DNA of 64,000 nt from an uncultured Pseudohongiella sp. (lineage in GTDB: Bacteria > Pseudomonadota > Gammaproteobacteria > Pseudomonadales > Pseudohongiellaceae). The notes below the pieces were generated by a model. The model did no database searches and was not told the origin of the DNA. It saw only the letters and a program-made list of their open reading frames with translations. A program made the position numbers and the translations under genes. Below are positions 2,740 through 57,135 of this stretch, piece by piece; within the stretch, counting starts at the first letter, position 1; every line of letters starts with the position of its first letter. The stretch is from assembly GCA_965222175.1 (NCBI GenBank), contig OZ244938.1, forward strand, positions 2,486,932 to 2,550,931, written 5' to 3'.

Positions 2740-4236
2740 CCCCTTAATGGTTCGGGGGCTACCATCGAAGATGGATACCTCAAGGTGGTATCGTGCACCA
2801 CCAATTCAAGTTTCATAATGGAGGCGTCTATGCAAGCAAACATAATCCATATCGGCCTGGATGTCGATGATACCAACTACCACGGTTCCGCCCTGGACAA
2901 ACACAGTGGCGAGTGCCTGTCCTTCAAATGCCGGCCCACACTCAAAGGTTTGCTAAGCCAGCTGAATAAGCTACAAAAACAGTTTCCTGGCACAGTCTTT
3001 CACTTGTGCTATGAAGCCTCCTATATCGGTTATACCCTGCAACGGGACTTGAGCAAACAAGGTTTCCACTGTGATGTCGTGGCACCTACCAGTATTCCCA
3101 GCCCCCGGGGCAAACAGATCAAGACCGACCGGATCGATGCGGCCCAACTGGTTCAGTTCTACGCCAATGGGTTACTGACCCTGGTTGGGGTTCCCGAGAC
3201 CGAACAGGAGCAGGACCGGGATCTGCTGCGCACGCGTAAACGCCTGGTCAAACATCAAGCAGAGCTGCGCTCTCACCTGCAGGCTTTATTGCGTCGTCAC
3301 GGCTTACACTACCGTGCTCAGACCGGTTACAAATCCCACTGGACCAAGTTGCACTACAGCTGGTTACGTCGAACGGTGGAAACGACAACAGGCAGCCTCA
3401 AAATCAGTCTCGACGTTCTCTTACGCCAACTGGGCACTACCGACCGGACGATTGCCGAATATGATCAACATATAGAGGCTTTAGCCAAATCGCCCCGCTA
3501 CGAGGAGGCTGTCAAAGCCCTGGTCTGCTACAAGGGCATCAAGAATCATTATGCCTTGACTCTGATCACTGAAATCGGCGATATCAAGCGTTTCCCTCAC
3601 CCGCGACAACTTGTGTCCTGGGCGGGTATGGATATCCGGGAATATTCCTCAGGGGGTAAACACAATCGATTCGGCATAACCAAACACGGCAACAAGTTCC
3701 TGCGCACCGCGCTGATTGAAGCTAACCAGCGGGGTTATCGGACCACTCGGATTACCAAGGACCTGAGCGCCAGGCGCAGTCATGTGGATGCGGAGCTGGT
3801 TAACATCGCTGATCGTTGTTTGCGTCGCTTACATAAAAAGGGAACACGCCTGTTGGATGCCGGCAAACACCCAAACAAGATCAAGGTCGCCTGCGCACGG
3901 GAGATGGCAGGGTTCATTTGGGAATCGTTGAACAAAGTGGCGGCTTGATGAAGAGTAAGAACCAGACTTCAACAAACTGAACGTAAACAGACACAATTAT
4001 CGAATGTCACTTGCCTGAGTGCATTGACTGATCTGAAGAAGTAAGACAGAGATTGGGAAGCCCACGGGTTTTTCTTTAGAACACCGACTTCTGGTTATAG
4101 ATCGTGGTAACCCCAAAACGGACAAATCTTAATGCGTTATCCAGTACGCGAATACGAGGATGTCAGTCCAAGGTCATAACTCTTTTAACGATCAGATCAA
4201 GGTACTCTCAGGTTGACATAGGGGGCGTCTATACGA
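2740..4236 (+). mobile_element. IS110-family insertion sequence (approximate limits), long non-coding 3' flank
   Basis: Contains an IS110/IS116/IS902-type transposase gene. It lies between a hairpin after the YHS gene and the start of the 130-bp repeat. A GAGGCGTCTAT motif occurs at both 2820 and 4222. Confidence 0.45.
2830..3948 (+). CDS. IS110 family transposase (DEDD-type)
   Basis: The N-terminus MQANIIHIGLDVDDTNYHGSALD matches the IS110 start (MxxxVGIDVaK). The C-terminal region is WAGMDIREYSSGGKHNRFGITKHGNKFLRTALIEAN. A GGAGG Shine-Dalgarno lies 5 nt upstream of the ATG at 2830. Confidence 0.85.
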   Translation: MQANIIHIGLDVDDTNYHGSALDKHSGECLSFKCRPTLKGLLSQLNKLQKQFPGTVFHLCYEASYIGYTLQRDLSKQGFHCDVVAPTSIPSPRGKQIKTDRIDAAQLVQFYANGLLTLVGVPETEQEQDRDLLRTRKRLVKHQAELRSHLQALLRRHGLHYRAQTGYKSHWTKLHYSWLRRTVETTTGSLKISLDVLLRQLGTTDRTIAEYDQHIEALAKSPRYEEAVKALVCYKGIKNHYALTLITEIGDIKRFPHPRQLVSWAGMDIREYSSGGKHNRFGITKHGNKFLRTALIEANQRGYRTTRITKDLSARRSHVDAELVNIADRCLRRLHKKGTRLLDAGKHPNKIKVACAREMAGFIWESLNKVAA

Positions 4237-4372
4237 AGAAGTACAAAAAGGTATCTCCGAACCCGGGCAATGTCCTGATGTGTGAATACTCGGCTTCAGC
4301 AATTCATGGAAACAGGTTCAAATCTGCAGAAGATCCCAGGATAGTCCCTTTTGGTTGGCCCTAAGGTAATGA
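4237..4372 (+). repeat. Copy A of ~130 bp repeat (second copy at 15290..15427, ~85% identical, same orientation)
   Basis: Direct alignment: gaagtacaa..tatctccgaacccgggcaatgtcc(t/a)gatgtgtgaata..gcttcag(c/t)aattcatggaaacag..cagaagatccca..ttggtt.gcc..aaggt. Confidence 0.8.
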
Positions 4373-4375
4373 AAA

Positions 4376-4978
4376 TCAGCACTCATACCAGTGTCCAATC
4401 GAGTGGTGTTTGCCGTTGCGTGCGAATACCCCATGAAATCTTGTCAGGTTGACTCTCGGCTTGGGTACCAGGGCCGCGAGTCTGGCTATAAAATCCACCG
4501 GTTCGAAGATCACATGGGTAGTGCCATTGCGGAATGGGGTCTTCAGCTCGTAGCGCACCTTGTCCGCGGGGGTGAATGACAGGCGCGGCTCGGCGACTGC
4601 GGGACGGGTGATGTAACGGCACAACCTCTCTACCTTGTCCACCAGCAGTGCGGTACTTTCCACCATGCGACGGGCGCCGCAGCTGGGGCGGAAGCCTCGT
4701 CTTTTGCAGGAGAAGGTCACCAGCTTTTCGCGGTGACAACTCTCACAGTGGACTCTGAGAAACCCGTGTTCCAGCCGGCAGCACTTCAGGTAGCCGGTGA
4801 ACTCCTGCTGCACGTAGTGAGGCACGGTTCTGCCTTCGGCCTTCAGGTGGGCGACGAACGCGGGGTAATACTGCTCGACAAGCGGATAGAGCAGTGTCGT
4901 TTCCGGCTGGTGGCACCGGCAGCGGCGCGGGGGTCCGGCGGCAGGAAGCCCGCCGGGCGAGATGGCTGGCAGCGGCAC
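4376..4978 (-). pseudogene. IS91-family (rolling-circle, Y2) transposase remnant with internal deletion of the catalytic core
   Basis: 200 aa. The N-terminal zinc-binding region (HCESCHREKLVTFSCKRRGFRPSCGARRMVESTALLVD) is fused directly to a C-terminal segment typical of IS91 transposases (RLSFTPADKVRYELKTPFRNGTTHVIFEPVDFIARLAALVPKPRVNLTRFHGVFA). The ~200 aa HUH/Y2 middle is absent. Confidence 0.6.
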
Positions 4979-5266
4979 GTCGAGGTCCCTTTCGACTGGG
5001 TGTTATTGCCAGAGTAGTTTGTAACAGCGTAACTGGCGCTGAATGTTGGTTTTTTCCTGGAACGCCGGTATCAGGCTGTCTGAATCTGCTTCGTTCGCGT
5101 CGCGGAGGTTTGAACTCAGGCGATAGTGGCTATATCCACGCCAGGTTCGGACACCGCCCTACTCTACCAATGCGCTGAAATGAGACGGTGATCAGTAGCC
5201 TCTTCATGCCAATATCAATCCACGCCTGACATTAACCTTACGTAAGCGTCCGGCCATCACGTCTTG

Positions 5267-6838
5267 CTATTCCGGTTGCCAGTTATGTGGCAATAGGTCA
5301 TTAATGCGACTGGCCTTCTGAGTCGGTAGCCTGGCCATGGCATCCTTCAGATAGACGTAGGGGTCAAGCCCGTTCATCCGGGCTGACTGAATAAGGCTCA
5401 TGACAGCGGCAGCACGCTGACCACTACGGAGCGATCCGGCGAACAACCAGTTGGAACGACCCAAGGCCCATGGGCGTATCTGATTCTCGACCCAGTTGTT
5501 GTCAATAGGCACCGCGCCATCCTCCAGGTAGCGAGTCAACGCGCGCCAGCGTTTCAGACTGTAATCGATAGCACGGGCTATGGCCGAACCCTCCGGCACC
5601 TTTTGCCGCTGCGCCAGCAGCCAGGTATGGAAGGCATCCATGAGTGGCCCAACTCGTTGCTGTCTTAGTCGATACCGTTGCTCGTCATCCAGATCCCTGG
5701 CCTGGCGCTCTATTTCGTACAGCTGACCGATGGTCTCCAGCGCGCTGGCCGCCAGGGTGCTCTTGTTGGTGGCATGCAGGTCAAAGAACTTGCGACGGGC
5801 ATGGGCCATACACCCGATCTCGGTGATGCCCTGACCAAAGCCTGCCTTGTAGCCGCTGTAATCGTCGCACACCAGCTTGCCCTGCCAGTCGCCCAGGAAG
5901 ACCCGGGCATGGTCCCCGGCACGGCTCGGGGCGAAGTCATAGACCACGGCCCGGGTCTCCGCATTGGAGGTGGTGCAGTAGGCCCAGATATAGGCGCGGT
6001 GGGTTTTCTTCTTGCCCGGCGACAGCATCGGCACCGGGGTCTCGTCGGCATGAACCACCGAGTGGCTCAGGATGGTCTCGCGTAAGGCATCCGCCAGGGG
6101 CTGCAACCCCACGCCGCAGCGGCCTACCCATTCGGCCAGCGTGGAACGGGGAATGGCCAGTCCGGCACGCTCAAAGATCTTTTCCTGACGATACAGCGGC
6201 AGGTGGTCGGCGTACTTGGCCACCAACACCTGTGCCAGCAGGCCGGTGGTAGGCAGCCCTTTGTCGATCACGTGAGGCGGCACCGGGGCCTGCACCAACG
6301 TTTCGCAGTCTTTGCACACCCACTTGCCGCGGACGTGCCGTTCAACGGTAAACTCTCCTGGCGTATAGTCCAGCTTCTCACTGATCTCTTCACCGATACG
6401 GGTGAGCTGGCAGCCGCACTGACACTGGGTCGTGTCAGGCTCGTGTTCGATCAGTTTGCGTGGTAACCCGGGTGGCAACGGCACACGCTTGGGTTGCTGT
6501 TTCGATTTAGGCTGTGGGGGATGGATCTTCGCCGCTTCCAGTTCCGCCTCAATGCCACCCAGGTCGGCATCAACAATGTCTTCAAGCAGGGTGCGTTGCA
6601 GAACGTTCAGTTTTTCGCTGTGCTTGCCAAAGCGATGGCGTTTGAGTAACGCCATCTCGTGAGTCAGTTTTGCATTGAGTGTTTCTAGAAAGCGGTTACG
6701 CTGGGTGAGGCGATCGTTGTGTTCAGTGCGATGTTGAAGTTTCTTATCCTGCTCGGCGAGGCGCGATAGCAACGAGGCGGTAAGGGCTCGTAATTGGTCT
6801 GCATCAAGCTGGCTGACGTCAGGCTGTGACATAGGCAA
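5267..6838 (-). CDS. tnpC: IS66 family transposase TnpC
   Basis: 523 aa. N-terminal leucine-zipper/coiled coil, a CxxC...CxxC zinc finger (CQCGCQ...CKDCE), and a DDE region typical of IS66 TnpC. Confidence 0.85.
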   Translation of the reverse strand: MPMSQPDVSQLDADQLRALTASLLSRLAEQDKKLQHRTEHNDRLTQRNRFLETLNAKLTHEMALLKRHRFGKHSEKLNVLQRTLLEDIVDADLGGIEAELEAAKIHPPQPKSKQQPKRVPLPPGLPRKLIEHEPDTTQCQCGCQLTRIGEEISEKLDYTPGEFTVERHVRGKWVCKDCETLVQAPVPPHVIDKGLPTTGLLAQVLVAKYADHLPLYRQEKIFERAGLAIPRSTLAEWVGRCGVGLQPLADALRETILSHSVVHADETPVPMLSPGKKKTHRAYIWAYCTTSNAETRAVVYDFAPSRAGDHARVFLGDWQGKLVCDDYSGYKAGFGQGITEIGCMAHARRKFFDLHATNKSTLAASALETIGQLYEIERQARDLDDEQRYRLRQQRVGPLMDAFHTWLLAQRQKVPEGSAIARAIDYSLKRWRALTRYLEDGAVPIDNNWVENQIRPWALGRSNWLFAGSLRSGQRAAAVMSLIQSARMNGLDPYVYLKDAMARLPTQKASRINDLLPHNWQPE

Positions 6839-14408: not shown

Positions 14409-15289
14409 GTCACTCGGTTATTTACTAAGGAACCTCTGAGCCTGTTGCATCGCTTCGATTTCACGCATACCTCTTTCTCGTACCTTCGTTGGTTGATGAA
14501 AAAGTTCTGCCTTGTTATACGACGTCTGATTCGAGTCGTGAGTTGCATTCGGTTCGTTCCTCGCTTTCCGCAGAAAACGCGTGAAAAAAACACTTGTCAG
14601 CAGCTCCATCGAGATTCTGTTGAGCATCGACATCTACCACCTCAGAGTCCTGATCGACCGCTTGCCAGAGATAACTGTACGCCACGGATTTACACAGCAA
14701 CTGGTCGACTGCGAGTATATCACCGAATCCTTTATGTCTTCGCTTCAGGCGTCTTGCATAAAGCAATCCAAACTTGGTATATAGCAGCCGGACGATCTCG
14801 TAACTCATTTAAATTCCACGCTTGACTGACAGACCTCCAATATCTCTGTGGCTCAGGTTGACTCGAAAACACAACCAGACTGCATGCAGGATAATTTCAG
14901 GCGGAAAGCGGTTTCGTTTGTAAATTTTACTGAGGTTCATGCCTCGATCATGGCAGATACCCAGTTAACTTGTCAGTGCCATTCCTCACACTTCTACAAG
15001 GCGGATGGCCACGCATTCTGCAACAATTCCCCGCCACCGGGGGGTGCAAAATCGGTCTGCAGAGTACTCAGGAATATTACGGAGGGAAATCTCCCGGTGA
15101 ACCACGACAAAACATCGACTATCGATGATTCATGTCACCTGAAGGCCGTTAATCCCTGCATCGGGAGACTGAAGCTGGAATGAGTACTTAATGTGTCGTT
15201 ACGGCCATTTGTTGAGAGCCTACGATAGAGGGGTTTTCATTATTTGAAGAACACTTACGGTATAAGACTATGTGCCGCTGGTGAGAACG

Positions 15290-15427
15290 CTTTTTGGGAA
15301 GTACAATTGTTATCTCCGAACCCGGGCAATGTCCAGATGTGTGAATAATCCGCTTCAGTAATTCATGGAAACAGTTCCAACTCGCCAGAAGATCCCAGAA
15401 AATCCACTTCTGGTTAGCCGCAAGGTG
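15290..15427 (+). repeat. Copy B of ~130 bp repeat (see 4237..4372)
   Basis: About 85% identity to copy A in direct orientation. It is followed by a perfect hairpin at 15440..15469. Confidence 0.8.
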
Positions 15428-21186: not shown

Positions 21187-22467
21187 ATGAAACCACTTTC
21201 TCGGTACAACTTCCGACTCAGTCGAAGAAGGCTCCTGCAGAATACCGGCAGGTATGCGGCACTGGCTGCTACCGCGGGTGCAATACCGGTTCCAGGACTG
21301 GAAACACTTGCCCAGACCCCCAATCTGCGTATCGACCAGGTCAGCGCCTACCCGGTATACATTAATCAGCGGTCCGATGGTCTGCTGGATACCCCTGTTT
21401 TCTCCAGTGATTCTGATCCTCGACGCTGGCGTTATGGTGGTCCTTTTGAGCAGCTGCCATCGGCGATCGTGGCCATCGTGAAGACCAACCAGGGCATCAC
21501 CGGTTTCGGCATGGGTGCCGGCGGCAGTGCAGCGGTAGAGATTATCGACGGGCACTTACAACATCTGTTGCTGGGTGCCAATCCTCTGAACGTGGAGCAG
21601 TTGTGGGACCAGATGTACACCTCCGGCGTTTTTTACGGTCGCCGCGGCCTGTTCGTGATGGCCCTGAGTGCGCTGGATAATGCGCTGTGGGACATCGCCG
21701 GCAAATACGCAGGAAGTCCGGTCCACCAGTTGCTGGGTGGCGCCAACCGCGATCGACTGCCGATCTACCAGACCAATGGGGATTTCGCTGCCGGTTACGC
21801 AGCGGGCATACGCAATTTTAAACGCACGACTGCCGGTGGACCGAGAATGCGCCAGCAGGACCTGGACCGGTACGTAGACTCGGTGCTTGAAGCCCGGGAC
21901 CTGCTCGGACCGGACGTCAGGCTGATGACCGATTGCGTGTCCCGCGATGGCACCGTGGAATGGGCTCTGGGACTGGCTGAGCGATTGCGTCCGGCAAACC
22001 TGTATTTCATGGAGGAATTACTGTCACCCGACAATGTTTTTGGCTACGCCGAACTGACACGCCGGATAGGTAACCGTGGACAAGGCTGGACTCGAATAGC
22101 CTGTGGCGAACACGAGTATTCCGAGCATGGCTTCAACGTACTGGTGCAGCTGGGCTCGGCGGACATCCTGCAACCGGACATCACCTGGTGTGGCGGCACC
22201 ACGGCTGGACGCCGGATTGCCAGGGTGGTTGAGAACGCCGGGTTGGAACTTATCCCCCATCGCGGTGGCAGCTCCTGGGGTTTCCCCATCGCCCTTACTT
22301 CATCAAGCTGCACAATGGCTGAAAGCTTTCCGCAAGGCTCGGCGATTCTCGACGCCATGTCCTGCCAGGTTGTGAACGGCTACGTGATTGCGCCAACCGA
22401 GCCTGGTTTTGGAACGTCTCTATCAGAACAAATGGTGCTGGACTACCGACTGACGGAAAACATCTGA
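21187..22467 (+). CDS. Enolase-superfamily (mandelate racemase/muconate lactonizing enzyme-like) protein with Tat signal
   Basis: N-terminus MKPLSRYNFRLSRRRLLQNTGRYAALAATAGA (twin-arginine). The MR/MLE fold follows. Confidence 0.65.
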   Translation: MKPLSRYNFRLSRRRLLQNTGRYAALAATAGAIPVPGLETLAQTPNLRIDQVSAYPVYINQRSDGLLDTPVFSSDSDPRRWRYGGPFEQLPSAIVAIVKTNQGITGFGMGAGGSAAVEIIDGHLQHLLLGANPLNVEQLWDQMYTSGVFYGRRGLFVMALSALDNALWDIAGKYAGSPVHQLLGGANRDRLPIYQTNGDFAAGYAAGIRNFKRTTAGGPRMRQQDLDRYVDSVLEARDLLGPDVRLMTDCVSRDGTVEWALGLAERLRPANLYFMEELLSPDNVFGYAELTRRIGNRGQGWTRIACGEHEYSEHGFNVLVQLGSADILQPDITWCGGTTAGRRIARVVENAGLELIPHRGGSSWGFPIALTSSSCTMAESFPQGSAILDAMSCQVVNGYVIAPTEPGFGTSLSEQMVLDYRLTENI

Positions 22468-22490
22468 AGGCGACGATGCAGATCGCTGGT

Positions 22491-22690
22491 GATTCAAGGA
22501 CTGTCTGAATAAGTATGGAAGTGCTCTGCGGGAATCTGCGGGGCATTACTGCAGGGCGTCGAGCGCCGGGAATGGCCATCGCCCTTGCCAGGCGCGGCAA
22601 CACCGCGGTAGTGCGCGACAGACTCCGATCGCCCCGGATGCACTGCGAAGGAGCGACCGGAACGACCAGTGTCTGATAGGGTAAGAGCGC
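22491..22690 (-). repeat. MITE-like repeat, degenerate copy (inverted relative to 36943..37232)
   Basis: Reverse-complement alignment with the 36.9 kb copy across tatggaagtgctctgcggga..ctgcagggcgtcgagcgccgggaatggccatcgcccttgccaggcgcggcaacaccgcgg..gcgcgacag. Confidence 0.75.
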
Positions 22691-28888: not shown

Positions 28889-30022
28889 CTAAGGAACCTC
28901 TGAGTCAACCTGCCAGGAAATCTCCAGTTCCTCAATTTCCGCATCAAATTCGTGCAGCGTGATCAATCCCAGGCATGGGTATGCCCCGGTCCTGGATAAC
29001 TCGTTCCGGGCGAGTTTTCTCGCCAGCACCAATGCCGGTGTACAAGGTATCTCCGGGCCGTGATTCCGCCTGGCTGTCAGGTACCAGTCCAGTACCATGG
29101 CATTTCCATCCGTTCCTGTTCCTGATATTCGCACCTGCATGCCTCCCGTATCGGAGCCGAAACCGCTGAGCTTTTCACTGATGAAATTAAGGCAAGGTGC
29201 CAACCCAACCCAGCTTTTTACAATTCCAAGACGGGTGAGCCATGCCATGCAGTACAGACCCAACTGTTCCCAGCGCGCCTCCAGTGCCGCATGAAAGGTG
29301 ACAGTTTCAAGGCCCGGTACATAGTCTTCAAGTAACGACAGATCAGGCACATCGCAGGACCCGGACAGGCGCCTGCCAAGCAGTGGATAGTGCTGCCAAC
29401 GGAGATCCTGCCAGCCGTACCTGTTAACTGCCTTTCCCTGTTCCGGAACGGCAAATGGCTTTCCGCAGTAGCTTAGTACGGCCTGGATTGTACCGATTCC
29501 CCTGGGCGTCTGATGGGCAGGCGCAATGGAAATATTAACAGCCTGGATGGACCGGAAACTGTCTCTGTAATGAGCAATGACAGCACTGGAAAGTCCGGGC
29601 AGCGTACTCGCGCCGGACACTGCCAGAACCCCGGCCCCTTTCGCACTTTCATCAAGTTCGCTGAACCCGTCGACAAATTCCCGGCCGTCAGCCAGGTCGA
29701 TATAGTGAGAACCCGCCGTAATACAAGCTTTTGCCACGCGGTAGCTTTGACCTTGATAGGGCCCGGCTGTATGCAGAACGATGTCCGGGTTGAGATTCAG
29801 CAAATCCTGCTCGAAGTTGTCTGCGGACTGGTCAATTGCTGACGGAGAGACTTCATAGGCAGCGTTGATGTCCTGCAATTCCTCGGCAAGGGACTTTGCC
29901 CTGGGAAGACTTCGACTCGTAACAATGAGTCGCGTGTTCGGCTCGCCAACCAGCCGTCGACAAATCCTGCCACCGAAATGCCCGGTTGCCCCGAGTACAA
30001 GTAAGGTTTTGGTTTGTGACAA
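28889..30022 (-). CDS. Saccharopine dehydrogenase-like NAD(P)-binding protein
   Basis: N-terminal Rossmann TLLVLGATGHFGGRICRRL. Fold resembles trans-acting enoyl reductase/saccharopine dehydrogenase. Confidence 0.6.
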   Translation of the reverse strand: MSQTKTLLVLGATGHFGGRICRRLVGEPNTRLIVTSRSLPRAKSLAEELQDINAAYEVSPSAIDQSADNFEQDLLNLNPDIVLHTAGPYQGQSYRVAKACITAGSHYIDLADGREFVDGFSELDESAKGAGVLAVSGASTLPGLSSAVIAHYRDSFRSIQAVNISIAPAHQTPRGIGTIQAVLSYCGKPFAVPEQGKAVNRYGWQDLRWQHYPLLGRRLSGSCDVPDLSLLEDYVPGLETVTFHAALEARWEQLGLYCMAWLTRLGIVKSWVGLAPCLNFISEKLSGFGSDTGGMQVRISGTGTDGNAMVLDWYLTARRNHGPEIPCTPALVLARKLARNELSRTGAYPCLGLITLHEFDAEIEELEISWQVDSEVP

Positions 30023-30393: not shown

Positions 30394-30578
30394 ATAAGGA
30401 ACCCCTGATTAATTGTGGAAATACTCTGGCTTTCAGACAAGTTCACTGACGAGGCGCCTAGCCGCCGGCACGCATCGGCCTGTCAAGGCAAGACAACGAT
30501 GACAGTGGTCTCGCCTGGAAGCCCCTTCGGGCGCGGCCTGTCGGGCAGAGCACTTCCATAATCAGTAAGAGGTTCCAC
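30394..30578 (+). repeat. MITE-like repeat, short copy (~185 bp) with imperfect TIRs
   Basis: aaggaacccctgattaattgtggaaatactctggctttcag...gagcacttccataatcagtaagaggttcc. Homologous to 36943..37232 with about 90 bp of internal deletion. Confidence 0.8.
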
Positions 30579-30609
30579 AAGTTCTGGTCAGCCAGGAAGG
30601 GGGTGGTAA

Positions 30610-36678: not shown

Positions 36679-36942
36679 CGGGGTATCTCCTACGAGGTTG
36701 GGATTAGGCGTACATAGAGCGCCGTAACGCAGGCAGACCGAAACAGGCGCATAGAAATTGCGATACGAAGCCGGTCGATGTCGGCACTTTCATTATTTCA
36801 TTATTTCATTATTATTAATTATTCCTGCACGTGGTGCCTGGATCATTAGCGTTTTCCAAAGCTCGACTACCAATGAATCCCCGCCAGCGACCTGGGACTA
36901 TACACAGGTTTCCACGGATTATAGAAAATCTTATACTGCGAC

Positions 36943-37232
36943 ACTAGGGAACCTCTGATCAATTATGGAAATACTCTGGCTTTCAGGCGAGTTCACTGAC
37001 GAGGCGCCTTGCCGCCGGCATGCGTCGGCCTGTCAAGGCGAGGCAACCCTTTTAAGCCAACAAGGGCAGTGCGCTCGCCTGAAAGCCCCGACCGGCGGGG
37101 CCTGTCGGGCGCCACTGCGGTGTTGTCGCGCTTGGCAAGGGCGACGGCCATTCCCGGCGCACGACGCCTTGCAGTAGCGCCCGACAGACTCCCGCAGAGC
37201 ACTTCCATAATTGATCAGAGGTTCCCTGGAGT
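36943..37232 (+). repeat. MITE-like element (~290 bp) with near-perfect ~28 bp terminal inverted repeats
   Basis: The left end actagggaacctctgatcaattatggaa is the exact reverse complement of the right end ttccataattgatcagaggttccctggagt. The interior is GC-rich with nested inverted repeats (ggctttcaggcgag/ctcgcctgaaagcc; ctgtcgggcgc/gcgcccgacag). Confidence 0.85.
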
Positions 37233-37480
37233 CGGGATCAAAAGCTTTGTCCTCCATTGCCTGGGATTGGCCCGAGTCGTGACGTTGGCGTCGGGACTGA
37301 TCAGGATGAATCGTTGTAACCGTGGCGGATCCCCGCGAATCGAGCTCTGCCGACGACACGCTGCCTCGTTATGTGACGGTTATACCTTCCCTGCCGCGAT
37401 GACTGGATTCTTGTTACTTCCGGGGGGCATAATGGAGCAGGTAAGTAACCTGTTATTCAGAAACAATCGGAGATCCGAAA

Positions 37481-38647
37481 ATGATAATAAAATACATCAA
37501 GCGAGAATGTATCCGGATACCGGTTCTGAGCTTACTGATTTTCAGCTCGGCCGCCTCGGCACAGGATACAAGCGCAGAATCGACCTATGGTTCGGCAGAA
37601 CTGACAGGCAATTTCCTCCCTGACCCCCACAGCGTCCAGTTGCAGGCGGGAGGCGCCATCGACGCCAGCGCCATCGACGGCTGTATTGGATACATCAGCA
37701 ACGCACCGGACTACGAAATAAGCTACTCCGACCGCGCTGAATTCGATCTGAGCGTTTTCGTGGTAAGTGACACCGATACCACGCTGGTGGTCAATGCACC
37801 ATCAGGAGAGTGGTACTGCAACGACGATTTCGACGAAGCCGGCGGGACCAACCCGGGCATGGTGTTTTCACCCCCGGAAGAAGGTGTTTACGACATCTGG
37901 GTAGGGACTTACGAAGCCACAGACTCCTTTCCGGCGGCGGAGCTTGTAGTGACCGAAATCGGCCCGCCCTGGCTATTGACCTCCTCGGATCCCGGGAATG
38001 ACTCGGGGGAACCGACTTTAAGCAGTTCCGGTACGGGGTTCGTGGTAAGCCGTAATGGCCACGTGCTGACCAATAACCACGTGATCGAGGGCTGCAGTCG
38101 GACTACCTTTCAGTTACGTGGCGGGCTTCCCCAGGAAGCCAGCCTGATAGCAAGCAATGCAACAACCGACCTGGCGTTGTTGAAAACCTCTCTTGCCACA
38201 ATCCCGGCAATGTTCCGGGGGCCGAGGAGGCTGCGCCTGGGTGACGAGGTCATCGTCTACGGTTTTCCATTGCTGGGTGATCTATCCTCTCAGGGGAACC
38301 TGACCTATGGGATTGTCAGCGCCCTCAGTGGACTGGACGATGATTTGAGCAGACTGCAGATGACCGCGCAGATTCAACCCGGTAACAGCGGTGGACCGGT
38401 AATGAATCGTTCCGGTGAAATCGTCGGCGTCGTCGTGGAGACTGCCAATGAAGACTATTTTCGCGAACAACGGGGCACCGACACCCAGAATCTCAATTTC
38501 GCCGTACGGGATTCACTGGCTGTCTCGTTCCTGGATACCAACAACGTGGACTATCAATTGGGCGCGGCCGACGGTGAATCGATGGCCATTGCCGATATAG
38601 CAGAAATCGCGCAGGATTTTACCGGGCTGATTCTTTGTTATCAGTAG
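37481..38647 (+). CDS. Secreted trypsin-like (S1/DegP-type) serine peptidase with N-terminal beta-rich pre-domain
   Basis: Signal peptide present. Catalytic triad context TNNHVIEGC (His), DLALLKT (Asp), GNSGGPV (Ser). Confidence 0.75.
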   Translation: MIIKYIKRECIRIPVLSLLIFSSAASAQDTSAESTYGSAELTGNFLPDPHSVQLQAGGAIDASAIDGCIGYISNAPDYEISYSDRAEFDLSVFVVSDTDTTLVVNAPSGEWYCNDDFDEAGGTNPGMVFSPPEEGVYDIWVGTYEATDSFPAAELVVTEIGPPWLLTSSDPGNDSGEPTLSSSGTGFVVSRNGHVLTNNHVIEGCSRTTFQLRGGLPQEASLIASNATTDLALLKTSLATIPAMFRGPRRLRLGDEVIVYGFPLLGDLSSQGNLTYGIVSALSGLDDDLSRLQMTAQIQPGNSGGPVMNRSGEIVGVVVETANEDYFREQRGTDTQNLNFAVRDSLAVSFLDTNNVDYQLGAADGESMAIADIAEIAQDFTGLILCYQ

Positions 38648-40042: not shown

Positions 40043-40389
40043 TACGGCTCACCTGAATTCGTGCCTGGGTCGGCGTGAAAGTCGAAACGGAACCAAAGGT
40101 CAATCGTGGTCGAATCCAGCAAATAAAGTTTGTCGCAGAAGCGGAACCCATGCCTTGGCGCTAGCTCCTGGCAGCGGACCATCAGTTTATGGAACAGTAC
40201 TTCGTATAGCATAAAGATTTGTTGTTCATTGATACGGGTTAGAGATGTCCTGGTGATGCGAGCGCTGCCAAGATGGTAGGGCTTGAATCTCCCTGTTATT
40301 ACAGTGTGGTTGCACATCCATTGTACCAATTTATTGAGATTCAGGCCTTTATTAATGCAAAGTTATGGGACAACAGCGATCAGCCCTAC
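40039..40389 (-). pseudogene. IS4-family (DUF4372-type) transposase remnant: IS left end fused to codons ~88-160 only
   Basis: Translation YHLGSARITRTSLTRINEQQIFMLYEVLFHKLMVRCQELAPRHGFRFCDKLYLLDSTTIDLW matches the IS4-family N-terminal region. The ORF shares a ~110 bp 5' leader with 42297..42409 but skips the first ~87 codons. It is truncated after DSTTIDL. Confidence 0.65.
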
Positions 40390-40575
40390 AAATGCCGGGC
40401 GACCTGGCAAGACCCGGATTTTAAAATATCTGTCCTAGCGCGAACGTATTTCGGTCTTGTTTTCAACAGTGTGCGCAATCGATTTCTTAAGCTGTATTTG
40501 AATCCACACGACCGGAAGCCAGCTCATCCCGATAAGAAAATAGATTCCAACTGTCAGCAATAGCCATGTAGTGTT

Positions 40576-40788
40576 TCAATCATAGCCAACCTCGTGAAGA
40601 AGCCAGAATCCTGTCAATGGTTGCAGAATTACCGCTGGAATCGTAAATATACAGTCAGCCAACACCGTATTTCTGACTGCATAGTATTTGCCGTGCTGAT
40701 TGGGAATTAAATAGGAACGAAACATAAAAAATACGATACCTGCTAATAGCAAACAGGACGGTTGAGCCAATGATGTGCAGAATGACAT
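40576..40788 (-). pseudogene. N-terminal fragment of a DUF2269 membrane protein paralog
   Basis: 70 aa (IVFFMFRSYLIPNQHGKYYAVRNTVLADCIFTIPAVILQPLTGFWLL) homologous to the N-terminus of the 28367..28876 protein. Truncated where the IS remnant begins. Confidence 0.55.
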
Positions 40789-40883
40789 TCATAACTGAAT
40801 CTTGAAATCGGCCAGTTACTGGCCCTATACAGAGAATTCACATACCAGTCTGAGGAGTGTACCTGTAAACCCCTCCGCGGACC

Positions 40884-41987
40884 TCAGGTATATCCTTTGC
40901 CACCACAGGAATTGCACCGCCCGTAGCCAAAACATTTGAGACAGTTAGAATCCGCTGAAACGTTAATACCTCTGCCTCCACAGAAAAAGCAGCTTCCGGA
41001 ACCTCCGCAAGTGAAGCACGACGCGCCATAACCCTGGGGGGTTTTAGTGATCCTATCCATTGATCCACTGCCAAGTGAAGCACGCAAGTCAGCCACGTCG
41101 GATTGAATTTCACGACGAGACTGATCCAGCTGACTACGTAAACTGTCCGGATTCCCATTGGAGATCGGCGCGGGTGTGGCAGGGGCGCTTTGTGGAACGG
41201 GCTTGACCAGCGAGAAATTTCCTTTTGGCTCCAGCTCCAGAATTATCCAGAAGGTATCTGGAGGCGAAAACAAAGCCATCTCCTTAAACGGAATCTTACA
41301 ATAACCATCGTTGCCCCATTCCTTACCCCAGCTGTTTCTTACGATAAAGTGACCCGCTGTGGAATCATAACCAACAATCAACATGCAGTGACCACTGGCT
41401 GGCTGGGAAACCAGTTCTGCCGGCTCTGAAGGCGGCATAAGACCAGTTTTCCCTGCTTCTTCATAAAGCCTTTGGGGAAGAAAGGTACCGAATACGACCG
41501 GGTAGTTGTTTGCGAGAGCCAGCATCGCACCATCCGGACCGGGAACCCGTGCATACTGTATTGCTTCATGTAACTTGCCGTTTTCGTATGCCTGTTGCGG
41601 TGGTTCCTTTATATAATTGTTGATGTCATAAGGCCAGAACTTGGATTCGCAGGCGCCAAAGGCCATTACCGCAGCCATTGCCTCGTTAATTGCCGCTCCA
41701 GAATCCTGCTCAGTCATCCCTTTCAAACGGCGAGTATTATAGTAGACAAACAGTCGGCTCAGTTCCGTCGAGTGTCCATCGCGCCTGGTATAGGCATACT
41801 CCAGTGCCCCCACACAGGCATTTGCTGTGCAACTGCCGATCCGCCCCTGATCTTCAACAGGTGAACAGTATTGTCGCAAATCAACTTTGGTGGGTAGATC
41901 CTGTTGCCCGAATTCAAGCCTATAATCACCGGCTTCAATACTCCCGAAGTCACACCCGTCAAGTCGATTTCCATCACTTGTCAACAT
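40884..41987 (-). CDS. Papain-like C1 cysteine peptidase fused to C-terminal DnaJ-type zinc finger (4x CxxCxGxG)
   Basis: Paralog of the 35764..36678 protein (QGRIGSCTANA; GHCMLIVGYD; NSWGKEWGNDGYC). C-terminus carries four DnaJ-type repeats: CFTCGGSG, CFFCGGRG, CLKCFGYG, CNSCGGKG. Confidence 0.75.
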   Translation of the reverse strand: MLTSDGNRLDGCDFGSIEAGDYRLEFGQQDLPTKVDLRQYCSPVEDQGRIGSCTANACVGALEYAYTRRDGHSTELSRLFVYYNTRRLKGMTEQDSGAAINEAMAAVMAFGACESKFWPYDINNYIKEPPQQAYENGKLHEAIQYARVPGPDGAMLALANNYPVVFGTFLPQRLYEEAGKTGLMPPSEPAELVSQPASGHCMLIVGYDSTAGHFIVRNSWGKEWGNDGYCKIPFKEMALFSPPDTFWIILELEPKGNFSLVKPVPQSAPATPAPISNGNPDSLRSQLDQSRREIQSDVADLRASLGSGSMDRITKTPQGYGASCFTCGGSGSCFFCGGRGINVSADSNCLKCFGYGRCNSCGGKGYT

Positions 41988-42107
41988 CTATCAAGCCTCA
42001 CGTTTTTCAACATCAGTTAAAAATGGGCCGGCTTCTTTTATCTGCCATACCTCGAATCCCGGTATACCAGGTGAGCAGCCAGCCCACCGCTATCAAACGT
42101 AACCCAA

Positions 42108-42409
42108 TTACAGACTGCATCCACCATTTTCAGAGTTAGGTCTGTATCGCCATGAAGATTTCCTGAATTCCCCGTAGTCTGGCCACCGAGACATTTTACG
42201 CAGTTTCTGGCCAACATGATGCCGATTGGCCAGGGATTCGAATTCATGTCTCGGAATGAATTTTAGCAATTGAGCGAAGACCGTATGATGATGTGCCAAG
42301 GCTTGAATCTCCCTGTTATTACAGTGTTTGGTTGCACATCCATTGTATCAACTTGTTGAGATTCAGGCCTTTTTTAATGCAAAGTTATGGAACAGCAGTG
42401 ATCTGATTC
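42108..42409 (-). pseudogene. IS4-family transposase remnant: IS left end plus first ~38 codons
   Basis: TTG-start ORF reading AHHHTVFAQLLKFIPRHEFESLANRHHVGQKLRKMSRW (DUF4372 N-terminus), then unrelated sequence. Its leader is about 90% identical to 40283..40389. Confidence 0.65.
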
Positions 42410-42778
42410 TGAAAAATTGGGTAGAATTTACGCAACAATATTCTTGACGATTCAGCTGCAGGACTGGCGAAGTCTCCGGAAAATTCCGGATTGGAAGACA
42501 GCCTTCCCGATCCGGCACTCAAGAGAGACTGCAGCGAGTATTGTGCCGTCTGTAATATCGCGCGACGCTGCTATTATTGCAATGGCACGGGACGAATCTC
42601 TGGTGACGGTTGCTGGAAATGCTCCGCATCCGGCAGATGTTACGCCTGCATGTACTGGTAACCTTTCAGGAAAACCTTCTTTGAATCGTCTCAAACCATG
42701 GCATCACTACCAGGTTAAATTGTCAACACTGTGAGATTCCGGCAAGCAACGCCGACAGTAAGACGGCAAGGTAACAGA

Positions 42779-43753: not shown

Positions 43754-44429
43754 TACCGATTCCCTTCCCCGGACTGGTCGCCGGATTCAACCCGGTCATA
43801 TACAAACCACACCTGTTCACCCTTGATATACATGGGAAACACCAGGAAAAATGTGCCGGTGAGCCTGCCCACGTAATGTACAGCCAACTCTCCGTCTTCG
43901 GTAAATGCCAGCGTATACTCATCTCTTTCCGCAGCCGGTAAAAAAATTCCCCCGGTCCAGAACAAACCCGCCACTACACCATCGAGCACCAGGGCATTCC
44001 AGCGGGTCGTGAAGCGCCAGCGACCGTCATCGCAGTCCCTGTCTCGTGGCTGCAGGATGACGCTCTCATCAAACCTGGAGCCTTCAGACCACGCGTACAG
44101 GACCAGTCTGTTGTCATTATCCCTATCAAACTGAACGCGGTCGATGGCAAAACCGGCCAACTCACCCCCCATATCAGCGAGGACAGTCGTGGAGTGGTTG
44201 TCTGCTGCTCACTGATTGTGCGGCCCGTATTGGCATAAAAACCGGTGGGCGATTGACAGGCGGCCGCAGTGTTGGCTACCAGTCGGGGTTCCTGCAACGC
44301 TTTCGTCACACAGCCACTCGGAACAAGTAGTGCCAGGAGCAGAGGAGCCAGGATTAACAAATTGATCCCGATGAAGCGGCCAGGATTGCCGCGCAGCGCC
44401 CGGTTTACCAATCGGTGGCTGGTGAACAT
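43753..44429 (-). pseudogene. Lipoprotein gene with frameshift at G6 homopolymer (44164..44169)
   Basis: Signal peptide with lipobox (LLLALLVPSGC) is in one frame. The protein-like remainder (GGELAGFAIDRVQFDRD...) is in the -1 frame. The two frames meet at the gggggg run, and one extra G restores a single ORF. Confidence 0.55.
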
Positions 44430-48493: not shown

Positions 48494-48615
48494 TATGTGA
48501 TAGTGGTATGTACTGTCGCTTGAGGGTACCGCCGCGCTGGATCAGTGTCCATCCTGGTGGCTGTCAGCCAGTTGCCGGCCTCTGTGCAACTGGATAATTA
48601 CTGAGGAACCTCTGA

Positions 48616-51469: not shown

Positions 51470-53053
51470 TTACGGCCTGGCACAATAAAAATTTTCCGCC
51501 TCGTCGGTACTGCCATCGCCATCGTAAATGGCCACCTGTGGGTGCACACACAGTGGCCTGGTGCGGATCACGGCACCATCTTCCACCTTCGAGGCGATGA
51601 TGCGTTCCGGCGCAATGCCCTTCTCCACCCAGTTTTCCAGTGCAGTCAGCGCATCGAATCGATCCGGTCCAGGCCCACCCGAGCAATGGCCCATACCCGG
51701 CACCATGAACAGCCGGAAAAAATCCTGTGTCTCGGCAAGTGCCACCTCCCTGTCCGCGGTTTTGATGTCTTTCTGGATAAAGTCCACGACCTCGCGGAAA
51801 TAATCGATTGAAGCTAACGGTGAAATGTCCGGATCGCTCCATCCGTGATAAACGATCAGCTTGGAGCCGGCATCCCGGAACAAAGCGAGATTCGGATTCG
51901 CGGCGTCCACCGCCGGTCCGACTTTCTGCAGGGCGAAATCCAGATCCCTATCGTAATCGAAAGTTCTAAAATCCCATTCCGGGTCATCAAAAACAAACCA
52001 GCGGAAAAAACCCTCGCCTCCCAGCCAGTGCAGAGAACGAAAAGGCTCACTCCCTGTCACCCACCTGGCCCAGCCACCCGGTGCGGCTTCGCCGCCGGGC
52101 ACCAACCCGGGATAGACCAGTTCGCCTGCCGAATTGCTGACCCCTGACCAGATTTTCTCCACAGCCGATACCTGCTTCGGCGTCAGGCAGCTGTCATCGT
52201 CGGTGCCGGCCGGACAGGCCAGCGACTCGGGCCTGAACTTACAGGCCAGCGGATCCATCAGGATGCCGTCTTCGATACCATCCCGGGCATCGCAGGCCTC
52301 GTTAACCGCACTGCCCAGCGCGGGCAACTTGGCCGGAGGAATCCAGGCCTCTTCGTCGGCCAGCATGGCCAGTGAATACCACAGGTGGGCGCCGGCATAG
52401 AACCGCGTCCAGTCATTGGCCGGGTCTCCTGCGACAATGCCATCGAAGTCATAGGGGTAACGCTGCGCTTCCATCAGCCCCTGCTGCCCGCCTTTGGAAC
52501 AGCCCACGTAGTAGGAATAGTCGGGGGAAGCCTGGTAAAGCGCCTTGACAGCCTTTTTGCCATTGACCGTGGTTCGATGCAGACCACGATGACCAAAGTC
52601 CTCGATCAGATCCGGTCGACCGGAGGCCCACGACGCATCGAAAGGCGGGCCCGCCTCATGGCCGGTGTCGGTACTCGCTGTGGCATAGCCACGGCGCAAC
52701 GCGGCGGCCATGGGGCTGTAGCTGATCGTACCGGCCATGCCACCATTACCGACAACCTGGAATTTTCGATTCCAGTCGGTAGCGGGCAGCCACACCTCGA
52801 ACTTAACCGCGGGCCGGGTGACACCCTGGAGGCGGCAGAACGCCGGGGTAGTCAGCGCAGTGTCTGTACCCGGAGGTACAAAGCCGTTGGCCGCCACGAT
52901 TTCCGCCACAGTGATGGTGGTCATATCCAGCGTCAGTGACGTAAGCTGCTCACAGGCCCGGACAAAGCCAGGATCCTGTGCCTGCGCCGACCAGCAGGCT
53001 CCCAGTGCCATTATTGTGATACATGGCGCTTTAAATTGACAAACCAGATGCAT
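51470..53053 (-). CDS. Tannase/feruloyl-esterase family serine hydrolase (secreted)
   Basis: GCSKGGQQG nucleophile elbow in a tannase-family context. Signal peptide. Confidence 0.75.
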   Translation of the reverse strand: MHLVCQFKAPCITIMALGACWSAQAQDPGFVRACEQLTSLTLDMTTITVAEIVAANGFVPPGTDTALTTPAFCRLQGVTRPAVKFEVWLPATDWNRKFQVVGNGGMAGTISYSPMAAALRRGYATASTDTGHEAGPPFDASWASGRPDLIEDFGHRGLHRTTVNGKKAVKALYQASPDYSYYVGCSKGGQQGLMEAQRYPYDFDGIVAGDPANDWTRFYAGAHLWYSLAMLADEEAWIPPAKLPALGSAVNEACDARDGIEDGILMDPLACKFRPESLACPAGTDDDSCLTPKQVSAVEKIWSGVSNSAGELVYPGLVPGGEAAPGGWARWVTGSEPFRSLHWLGGEGFFRWFVFDDPEWDFRTFDYDRDLDFALQKVGPAVDAANPNLALFRDAGSKLIVYHGWSDPDISPLASIDYFREVVDFIQKDIKTADREVALAETQDFFRLFMVPGMGHCSGGPGPDRFDALTALENWVEKGIAPERIIASKVEDGAVIRTRPLCVHPQVAIYDGDGSTDEAENFYCARP

Positions 53054-53237
53054 GAAGTTGCTCCGCTCTTGCAGTCCCATGACAATCCAACAATCTTTTG
53101 CCAGTCCCTGTTGAATCCAGAATCTTTCGCGACTGCCGGAAACGTGAATAACCAGTCCCGGTCATCAGCACACCGCTAACAGGCGCGTTGTGCAGATCAG
53201 GGCTGGCGGAAAAACCAGTGGGCAGCGCTACCCCGGG

Positions 53238-53789
53238 TCAGCCTCTATAGGTAACTCGAAACGTCCACCAGTGATCGAAGCGCTGCTGATCCAGCGGCGG
53301 CCGAGGCGTCACCATGGTCTCTATATCGGTATGCTGCAACTTCAGTACACGCGCCTGGAAAGCCCGGTCCATGACGGCGGGATCGGTCTCGCGATTCAAG
53401 GTGACCGGATAGACCAGGTCTCCGAGCCGCAACAGGGCCGGTTCATCGGCTTCAACTTTCGAAGCCCAGTACTTGCGGTCACACACCGAACAGCTCAGGA
53501 ACAGCTCCCCTTCCGGCGTAGCCATGCAGTTCAGGTTAATGGAATGTGGTCGGATGCCGTCCCAGATCTGCAGCTGACAGAGGTTTTCCTGATTGGCCGC
53601 AGTGGTGGTCCAGTCACTCACCGGCTCATCCACCCGCTCACCAAACAGGTAACCGCCGGGCATCAGTCTGCAGGGGCAGATGCTGGAATAGATCAGGAAA
53701 CCCGCCATGCCAGCCACCAGCAGAACCGCCAGGCCGCCACCGACCCAGAGCCTGGGATTCCTGCCGTGCTGAACAGTTTTTCCATTCAT
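53238..53789 (-). CDS. Membrane-anchored hypothetical protein
   Basis: Internal Met MNGKTVQHGRNPRLWVGGGLAVLLVAGMAGFLIY, then a ~150 aa domain. Confidence 0.4.
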   Translation of the reverse strand: MNGKTVQHGRNPRLWVGGGLAVLLVAGMAGFLIYSSICPCRLMPGGYLFGERVDEPVSDWTTTAANQENLCQLQIWDGIRPHSINLNCMATPEGELFLSCSVCDRKYWASKVEADEPALLRLGDLVYPVTLNRETDPAVMDRAFQARVLKLQHTDIETMVTPRPPLDQQRFDHWWTFRVTYRG

Positions 53790-54203
53790 GGTATCGACTC
53801 TTAATTTATTGGTATTTGCTGTTGTACCTAAGTTCTGCGTTCTGCACGCTTTTTGCCAGATTGAACAGTGGACCCGATAGGAGCGACGTCCACAACACCA
53901 ATTTCCTGCCTGCGCATGGATCCCGTCTGGTTGCAGGGGACAGCAGGGATTGATGTTATTGATCACGGAGCCAAAAAACGAATTTTTCGCTTCCCCGGTC
54001 AAGCCTACGATTTTTCATCGTCCACCTGCAAGAGGTAACCGGCAACGTCACAGCACTCCGCAGAACCTCATTGATATGCGACGGAAGCCCTGTGGTCGGC
54101 TGGTTTATGCCGGAGCGGGTAATGTATAGTTGACGGTACACAATGACGGTTGTAGCAACGTGGCTATACGCCTATTTTCAAGGTTTTCAGGAGAGTTTTC
54201 CCC

Positions 54204-56809: not shown

Positions 56810-56942
56810 AATGCTTTTCCTGCTGTTTTCTTTTTCGACACGCTGTTCCCCCGGTTTCCGGCTCAGGCAATGACTGTGTTCCGTGGCTATCTTGTCAGGC
56901 TTGGCAATCTGGCCGTGTTATCTGTAGCAGCTACCTGACTTT

Positions 56943-57013
56943 GTTAATTATTCGGTGTTAATTATTCGGTGTTAATTATTCGGTGTTAATTGTTAGGTGT
57001 TAATTGTCCGGTG
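56943..57013. repeat. Tandem repeat, ~5 copies of 15-bp unit GTTAATTATTCGGTG (last copies degenerate)
   Basis: ttaattattcggtg x3, then ttaattgttaggtg, then ttaattgtccggtg. Lies in the 327-bp spacer between the wecA-like stop and the wbpM-like start. Confidence 0.85.
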
Positions 57014-57135
57014 ATCAAAAGCAGGTACCGGGCCTCAGAATCCCTGAGGCTTCCGGTAAAAACGGTATCTGCCCGGACTGATTGCTCAACCACCCCGGGA
57101 TCCCGCGGGGCTTGTCCTGGATTTATGTCGCAAGC

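Follow-up and report, generated by a model that had tools for sequence, protein, structure and literature searches.

The window – the whole 64-kb stretch of DNA analysed here – carries three copies of what is probably a non-autonomous MITE family that depends on a transposase of the IS5 group acting in trans, its parent family being most likely IS5. MITEs are small (about 50-1000 bp), transposase-free elements with terminal inverted repeats (TIRs) (PMC4596501, PMC10969869). The members of the present family are 28-279 bp long, contain no transposase gene, end in TIRs flanked by a target-site duplication (TSD) and occur as dispersed copies with presence/absence differences between strains; their GGAA... 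ends and apparent 4-bp YTAR duplication would place them in the IS5 group. The MITE reading of the original prediction is upheld by further copies, by YTAR TSDs, by a precise empty site and by the identity of its termini with the ends of IS5-family insertion sequences (ISs). The family has been recently mobile in an uncultured marine gammaproteobacterium.

According to the mechanism that best accounts for these observations, a DDE transposase of the IS5 group, whose gene either lies elsewhere in the genome or has since been lost, would bind both ends and insert the element at YTAR (CTAG, TTAA, TTAG, CTAA), duplicating the four target bases. After insertion, the long palindromes would decay by losing their interior in place, leaving 180-bp and 115-bp derivatives, mini-palindromes of 28-63 bp, one-ended fragments and 11-nt solo tips. 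Co-transcribed copies would put very stable hairpins into mRNAs, likely as a side effect of insertion.

Architecture of the full-length copy

The copy that defines the family, copy A, comprises the following features:

36944-36947, no strand: left TSD copy, CTAG; a single CTAG stands in the sister-strain empty site
36948-37225, plus strand: copy A, full-length 278-bp MITE (nhmmer E=8e-102, profile positions 1-278)
36948-36970, plus strand: left TIR, GGAACCTCTGATCAATTATGGAA, continuing as an imperfect repeat to 36978
36978-37087, plus strand: hairpin module 1, GC-rich, with outer stem GGCTTTCAGGCGAG / CTCGCCTGAAAGCC, predicted by MFE and consensus folds
37095-37195, plus strand: hairpin module 2, predicted by folds and profile; found in copy C, absent from copy B
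37203-37225, minus strand: right TIR, the exact complement of the left TIR
37226-37229, no strand: right TSD copy, CTGG, with one change relative to CTAG

This element had originally been delimited as a 290-bp unit with near-perfect TIRs of ~28 bp. The element proper is shorter, at 278 bp (36948-37225) between CTAG and CTGG, and, while the near-perfect repeat is real, its outermost 'act' belongs to the flank and its perfect part measures 23 bp. Over those 23 nt (36948-36970 against 37203-37225) the left end is, as had been stated, exactly reverse-complementary to the right one; with the flanking A/G included the match reaches 25 nt, the longer arms agree over 40 nt at 90%, and shuffles of the window contained no such match. 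The interior has a GC content of 69%, compared with 39% in the TIR and 55% in the whole window, and the predicted fold consists of an outer TIR stem and two long GC-rich hairpins. The description of a GC-rich, structured interior holds on both strands, which fold far better than shuffles, with z about -13 to -14 (-13.8 for plus, -13.1 for minus).

Copy A is 84-96% identical to the full-length copies in related loci L007-L033. It lies in the spacer between divergent peptidase C1 and trypsin-like genes, and a Pfam scan of the ORF that crosses it returned no family match. A sigma-70-like site (TTTCCA-17-TATACT, a 9/12 match to consensus) occupies 36909-36937, its end 7 bp away from the point where copy A inserted; should this consensus match be a promoter of the trypsin-like protease gene (37481), copy A would lie in the 5' UTR of that gene, in this strain only.

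Partial copies and solo tips in the window

A family profile built from 12 members and run over the 64-kb window recovered exactly three copies, the same three that the original prediction had named (A, B and C), and no others. The two incomplete copies and three 11-nt solo tips are:

30398-30576, plus strand: copy B, 179 bp, a MITE with an internal deletion (matching profile positions 1-163 and 247-278; module 1 kept, module 2 gone)
22498-22627, minus strand: copy C, a one-ended fragment with a degenerate right TIR and module 2 (profile positions 149-272, the profile match itself spanning 22504-22627)
14429-14439, plus strand: solo tip GGAACCTCTGA, directly preceded by CTAA; probably an end remnant of the MITE family or of a related IS5-type element
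28893-28903, plus strand: solo tip, preceded by CTAA and overlapping the 3' end of the minus-strand Sacchrp_dh-like gene
48605-48615, plus strand: solo tip, preceded by CTGA and directly following the stop codon of a DUF3179 gene

Copy B had been placed at 30394..30578 as a shorter relative of copy A lacking about 90 internal bp. Its homology and internal deletion stand, but its borders are 30398-30576 and what it lacks is an 83-position gap (profile positions 164-246) plus a loop segment of ~14 bp, the latter also missing from the 264-bp subfamily. Over three blocks it is 89%, 81% and 88% identical to copy A; its flanks are ATAA (30394-30397) and ACAA (30577-30580), and its spacer separates the Sacchrp_dh-like gene from a divergent 173-aa ORF.

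Copy C, earlier drawn at 22491..22690, is indeed inverted and homologous (83-85% identity to the right half of copy A), but only 22498-22627 belongs to the family, with a single end, and 22628-22690 is unmatched; the segment 22628-22712 next to it had no homologue in the window or in the related contigs compared. It sits between convergent enolase-superfamily and molybdopterin-oxidoreductase genes, and the nearest relative found for its flanking gene (87% identity) stands among different neighbours.

All three copies are intergenic, as originally noted. Two of them had been assigned to convergent or divergent gene junctions; such settings are real, but they apply to all three, A and B being divergent and C convergent. 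The peptides LARAMAIPGARR and LARATAIPGARR, cited as corroboration of the homology, are likewise present in the two spurious ORFs, 22295..22603 and 37009..37623.

The solo tips at 14429, 28893 and 48605 touch the neighbouring genes in different ways. The Sacchrp_dh-like gene takes its final codons (..SEVP stop, within 28889-28903) from the tip at 28893; in a sister strain (L037 1836-1848) this tip is present with a 1-nt indel, and the 3' reading frame of the gene differs. The sister strain has an additional degenerate tip at the 48605 site. Three other readings of the 13-mer AAGGAACCTCTGA were rejected. The differing relations of the solo sites to genes speak against a ribosome-binding site and against a coding motif conserved at C-termini, and it is the conserved IS5-type tip rather than an uptake-sequence-like motif.

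The family beyond the window

The repeat family of the original prediction has many further copies in related metagenome contigs. A strict 26-nt pattern taken from the conserved right end matched 34 JGI metagenome contigs from four assemblies, corresponding to ~22 distinct regions. Pairing of the 11-nt tips in the window and the related contigs defined 21 distinct two-ended insertion sites, at which the element measures 28-279 bp, counting a sister-strain mini. These sites fall into size classes of 278-279 bp (n=6), 263-264 bp (n=5), 177-182 bp (n=3) and 114-117 bp (n=2), the remaining five being minis of 63, 42, 34, 33 and 30 bp; one-ended fragments and solo tips are also frequent in the related contigs. 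Every two-ended copy is intergenic (21/21), and orientation relative to the neighbouring genes, which could be assigned for 15 of the 21, runs both ways.

The TIR is conserved among 12 aligned copies, with a 23-bp family consensus, GGAACCTCTGATTAATTATGGAA, that continues imperfectly out to ~40 bp. Full-length members (~264-279 bp) consist of these TIRs around two GC-rich hairpin modules.

Exact-pattern scans of GTDB species genomes and viral contigs gave no match, nor did blastn of the whole element against a plasmid collection. A genome search with the neighbouring Sacchrp_dh protein reached, as its nearest relative, a 65%-identical gammaproteobacterial MAG with neither synteny nor element, and a literature search for the tip sequence returned unrelated primers only. 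The family turned up neither in the plasmid and phage collections searched nor in the literature, and its earlier designation as new is reasonable: the sequence appears to be undescribed, and the kind of element – an IS5-type MITE – is well known.

Target sites

At nearly all 21 sites, a YTAR-like 4-mer (CTAG, TTAA, TTAG, CTAA) adjoins GGAACC...GGTTCC on either side. A majority of them are palindromic (CTAG, TTAA) and hence uninformative on the length of the duplication. Among the informative sites, four favour a direct repeat: TTAG/TTAG, found twice (L010 4058-4321 and L009 1345-1386); ATAA/ACAA at copy B, with an unusual outer A on both sides; and TTAT/CTAT at L031, which is better fitted by a direct 4-mer. 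One site (CTAA/TTAT) favours the inverted pattern, and at ATAT/ATAG (L030) the direct and inverted patterns fit equally. The non-palindromic direct pairs thus favour a putative 4-bp target duplication, a 2-bp TA duplication being less well supported, and the YTAR-type flanks behave at these further copies as target duplications, a behaviour the original prediction had proposed to look for.

The choice of target also accounts for some of the positions that copies occupy. At L024 (3910-3913) and L022 (2426-2429) the neighbouring gene has its stop codon within the duplicated target, because YTAR includes the stop codons TAA and TAG; several other copies lie ~10-40 bp from the 3' end of a gene.

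Correia, ERIC and RUP elements target TA-containing sites, and the present family could in principle be a MITE of the same IS630/Tc1-mariner type, in which only the TA of an NTAN target is duplicated and the base beside GGAACC is owned by the element. The near-invariant central TA in both flanks agrees with this model, as does the single CTAA/TTAT site, which it fits better; most sites, being palindromic, are compatible with either model, and ATAT/ATAG fits both. It is nevertheless improbable, given that the non-palindromic sites are mainly direct 4-mers, that IS5-family ISs, themselves flanked by YTAR, have identical termini, and that Pfam scans of the proteins from the window and the related loci revealed no IS630 transposase.

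Empty site and probable decay in sister strains

The trypsin-like protein encoded beside copy A has a 99%-identical homologue on contigs of five samples. These sister contigs (L037-L041) are 94-97% identical in DNA to window positions 27055-50212, and copy A is exactly absent from all five, with one CTAG left. The sister sequence reads ..gacaCTAGggcc.. / ..gagacaCTAGggccggg.. where the window reads ..gcgacaCTAG[278 bp]CTGGagtcggg.., providing the precise empty site that had been put forward as a check. In this two-lineage comparison, the difference may reflect a gain by insertion or else a precise loss.

At the copy B site, the four spanning sister contigs (L037-L040) carry a 28-bp palindrome, GGAACCCCTGATTAATTTCAGAGGTTCC, with the same ATAA/ACAA flanks. 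Because palindrome and flanks occupy the same site in the sisters, the insertion would predate the split of the lineages, its interior having been lost later in one of them.

A further form of decay may be recorded in tandem arrays of 'tip GGAACCTCTGA + TTAA' (L013 7582-7640, L016 8038-8095, L027 8177-8230), which precede some of the element ends. Given the preference for YTAR, these arrays are consistent with insertion into a TTAA within the TIR of a resident copy; we infer that the far sides of such nested insertions were later deleted, yielding the arrays.

Two other differences between the window and the sister strain were noted in passing. Window positions 44021-44353 (333 bp, the apparent N-terminus of a gene) are absent from the sister at L037 15279-15291, where the junction consists of an element tip, CAGAGGTTCC, abutting TTAA; the gap looks like a deletion adjoining a former insertion. 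The region between two conserved genes spans 2.4 kb in the window (40096-42465) and 1.1 kb in the sister (L037 12615-13714). There, a papain-like peptidase gene is arranged differently in the two, and the window has direct repeats of 78-103 nt, ~2020 bp apart (40280-40381 and 42300-42403).

IS5-type termini and the search for a mobilising element

The link to IS5 came from a 52-nt plasmid query composed of TTAA and the consensus end. TTAA+GGAACCTCTGATTAATT matched 21/21 nt on plasmid pUP202 of Methylomonas sp. UP202 (NZ_CP123898.1), exactly where an element of 1204 bp (52817-54020) has its left terminus; this element carries a gene annotated as IS5-family transposase. Taken alone, this 21-nt match has an E value of 0.3, and its weight comes from the exact position at an IS terminus. 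The Methylomonas IS has the left end GGAACCTCTGATTAATTCC.. and the right end GGAATCTCTGAAAAACAGCC (GGAATCTCTGA..), with TTAA/CTAA as flanks; the first 17 nt of its left end are identical to the MITE consensus, and the two diverge beyond nt 17.

Two further ISs extend the comparison. The one encoding P0285, a transposase 65% identical to that of the Methylomonas IS, has the TIR GGAACCTCTGAACAAATCCCCGC and TTAG adjoining each end (the ends being read on different contigs), and one from Teredinibacter turnerae (transposase 55% identical) has the end GGTAACTCTGAAAAACG and CTAG/CTAG flanks. The 11-nt tip GGAACCTCTGA is identical in the Methylomonas and P0285 ISs and similar in the T. turnerae one, and all three ISs have YTAR flanks. 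The terminus of Escherichia coli IS5 itself, GGAAGGTGCGAATAAG, is similar to the MITE ends, and IS5 has a documented 4-bp YTAR target duplication (PMC5009759). With tip, initial GG and target shared with IS5 ISs, the MITE therefore matches the IS5 group.

The window, ~250 kb of related contigs and the sister loci yielded neither an IS5-family transposase nor a longer element with MITE ends. A tblastn search with E. coli InsH gave no match; the best 120 relatives of the Methylomonas transposase included none on the 4.79-Mb source contig or the sister contigs; the multi-copy ORFs of the related loci encode ordinary enzymes or an IS91 fragment rather than anything of IS5 type; and no transposase follows the 'odd' ends in L027. 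Among the window genes, Pfam identified transposases of three other families only, clustered at 2785-6838, none matching the MITE ends:

2785-3948, plus strand: IS110-family transposase
4376-4978, minus strand: IS91-family Y2 transposase fragment
5267-6838, minus strand: IS66-family transposase

In the Methylomonas IS, a frame change of one base within a T/A run (..CTGTTTTTATAAAGCC.., L045 3485-3500) divides the transposase gene, leaving either a pseudogene or a case of programmed frameshifting.

Hairpins: consequence or function

The pairing of the element was analysed over 102 pairs in 12 full copies, with 500 shuffles. Of all cells, 96.8% are paired, compared with ~40% in slid controls, and eight pairs have changed on both sides, compared with 3.0 expected from the shuffles, one of which (1/500) reached eight. 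The excess of two-sided changes is located in the TIR stem and module 1, with some in helices 3-6. In module 2 (helix 7), 14 of 40 pairs depart by unpaired cells only and one pair has changed on both sides. In window copy A, L024, L031 and L011, the same variant base occurs in both TIRs.

The original prediction had allowed that the repeats might equally be a structured small-RNA gene family. Read in this way – as small-RNA or cis-regulatory RNA genes whose inverted ends form a closing stem – the family would owe its very stable predicted structure and the pairing figures just given to its function, and copy A, just downstream of the promoter-like site, would maybe lie in a 5' UTR. Several observations make this very unlikely. 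Rfam yielded no match over the window and, for the element alone, only the plant miRNA family MIR918, whose gathering score of 268 contrasts with the 22 bits obtained, at a chance-level E of about 0.08. Both strands fold equally well, copies stand in both orientations relative to adjacent genes, and many have lost entire hairpin modules while retaining their ends; module 2, moreover, departs from pairing in the manner described above. Presence/absence with target duplication and IS5-type termini are properties of a transposon, and for these same reasons RNA-level effects are best seen as possible consequences of the element rather than as its nature.

For the MITE family itself, the pairing signal is modest; its source could be subfamily founders, correction templated by the hairpins or a weak selection that favours pairing. 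The two-sided excess hints at a hairpin-keeping pressure that simple transposon decay does not predict. The arms might conceivably be homogenised by hairpin-templated repair or conversion, a concerted evolution that would be unusual for a bacterial MITE. That the hairpins themselves, acting in cis as RNA or DNA structures, are the reason why the family was kept or exapted is a doubtful idea; it arises from the two-sided excess, the paired TIR variants and the location of copy A 7 bp downstream of a -10-like box. In that case the hairpins might stabilise a 5' UTR or a 3' end, serve as a target of RNase III or form a barrier that separates divergent promoters.

REP/BIME/REPIN palindromes are mobilised by RAYT Y1 transposases, and elements of the REP and IS200/IS605 types insert without duplicating their target and bear hairpins in subterminal position, not long TIRs. 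The family resembles such sequences in being intergenic, palindromic, GC-rich inside and abundant, with hairpin-forming arms that decay to many small palindromic derivatives, yet its origin as a REP/REPIN-type palindrome moved by a RAYT (Y1, IS200/IS605-like) transposase is hardly credible, as its flanking 4-mer varies by site, is present on both sides and persists once in the empty site, its ends match DDE-type IS5 elements, and the proteins scanned from the window and related loci include no Y1 transposase.

Relation to known elements

As a candidate IS5-group MITE, the family shares GGAA termini and 4-bp YTAR flanks with ISs of that group such as E. coli IS5 and the Methylomonas IS. The Methylomonas IS is 1.2 kb long and carries a transposase, whereas the MITE is 278 bp long and carries none; their interiors are unrelated, that of the MITE being made of two GC-rich hairpins, and the MITE TIRs (23-40 bp) are longer and more perfect.

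IS5-like MITEs are known from Porphyromonas gingivalis (BrickBuilt, MITE239, MITE464/PgRS and MITE700) and from Neisseria (ATR, with ISNme1 as parent) (PMC4596501). Like the present family, they are non-autonomous, multicopy and intergenic, have TIRs matching those of IS5 elements and commonly occur as partial or one-ended copies (PMC4596501). Their TIRs are unrelated, however (GAGACC.. as opposed to GGAACC..); the duplications of BrickBuilt vary in length and sequence (PMC4596501), whereas those of the present family are consistently YTAR; and their matching ISs reside in the same genome, whereas no parent of the present family was found in the host sequence searched.

Correia (CREE), ERIC and RUP elements are, similarly, small intergenic TIR elements that form long hairpins in mRNAs and vary in presence between strains (PMC10969869). 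They differ in having a 2-bp duplication, where that of the present family is apparently 4 bp and its interior GC-rich and bipartite; no sequence similarity to them was noticed.

The family opens no new category and answers no long-standing question. What it adds is the record of an IS5-type MITE, active in the recent past, in a lineage of marine gammaproteobacteria that has been poorly sampled, with a clear series of decay stages running from 279 bp to palindromes of 28 bp at the same site. Annotation gains an explanation for three odd palindromes between genes, for two spurious ORFs and for three 11-nt motifs in the window, and the final codons of one gene can be traced to an element tip. 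Such elements mark strain-level variation and can alter the expression of neighbouring genes; copies A and B both lie between divergent genes.

Other repeats in the region

A second, unrelated direct repeat of ~116-130 nt (83-84% identity) occurs at 4238-4367 and 15298-15426, both intergenic. One of its copies abuts the IS91 fragment, and no third copy was present in the related loci compared. In one related locus (L009 5801-10205), three tandem paralogous genes of about 440-500 aa, about 81-89% identical, lie between MITE copies; the one that was scanned matched no Pfam family. At 56942-57025, about 5-6 tandem copies of a 14-nt unit, TGTTAATTATTCGG, occupy the spacer between polysaccharide-biosynthesis and glycosyltransferase-4 genes.
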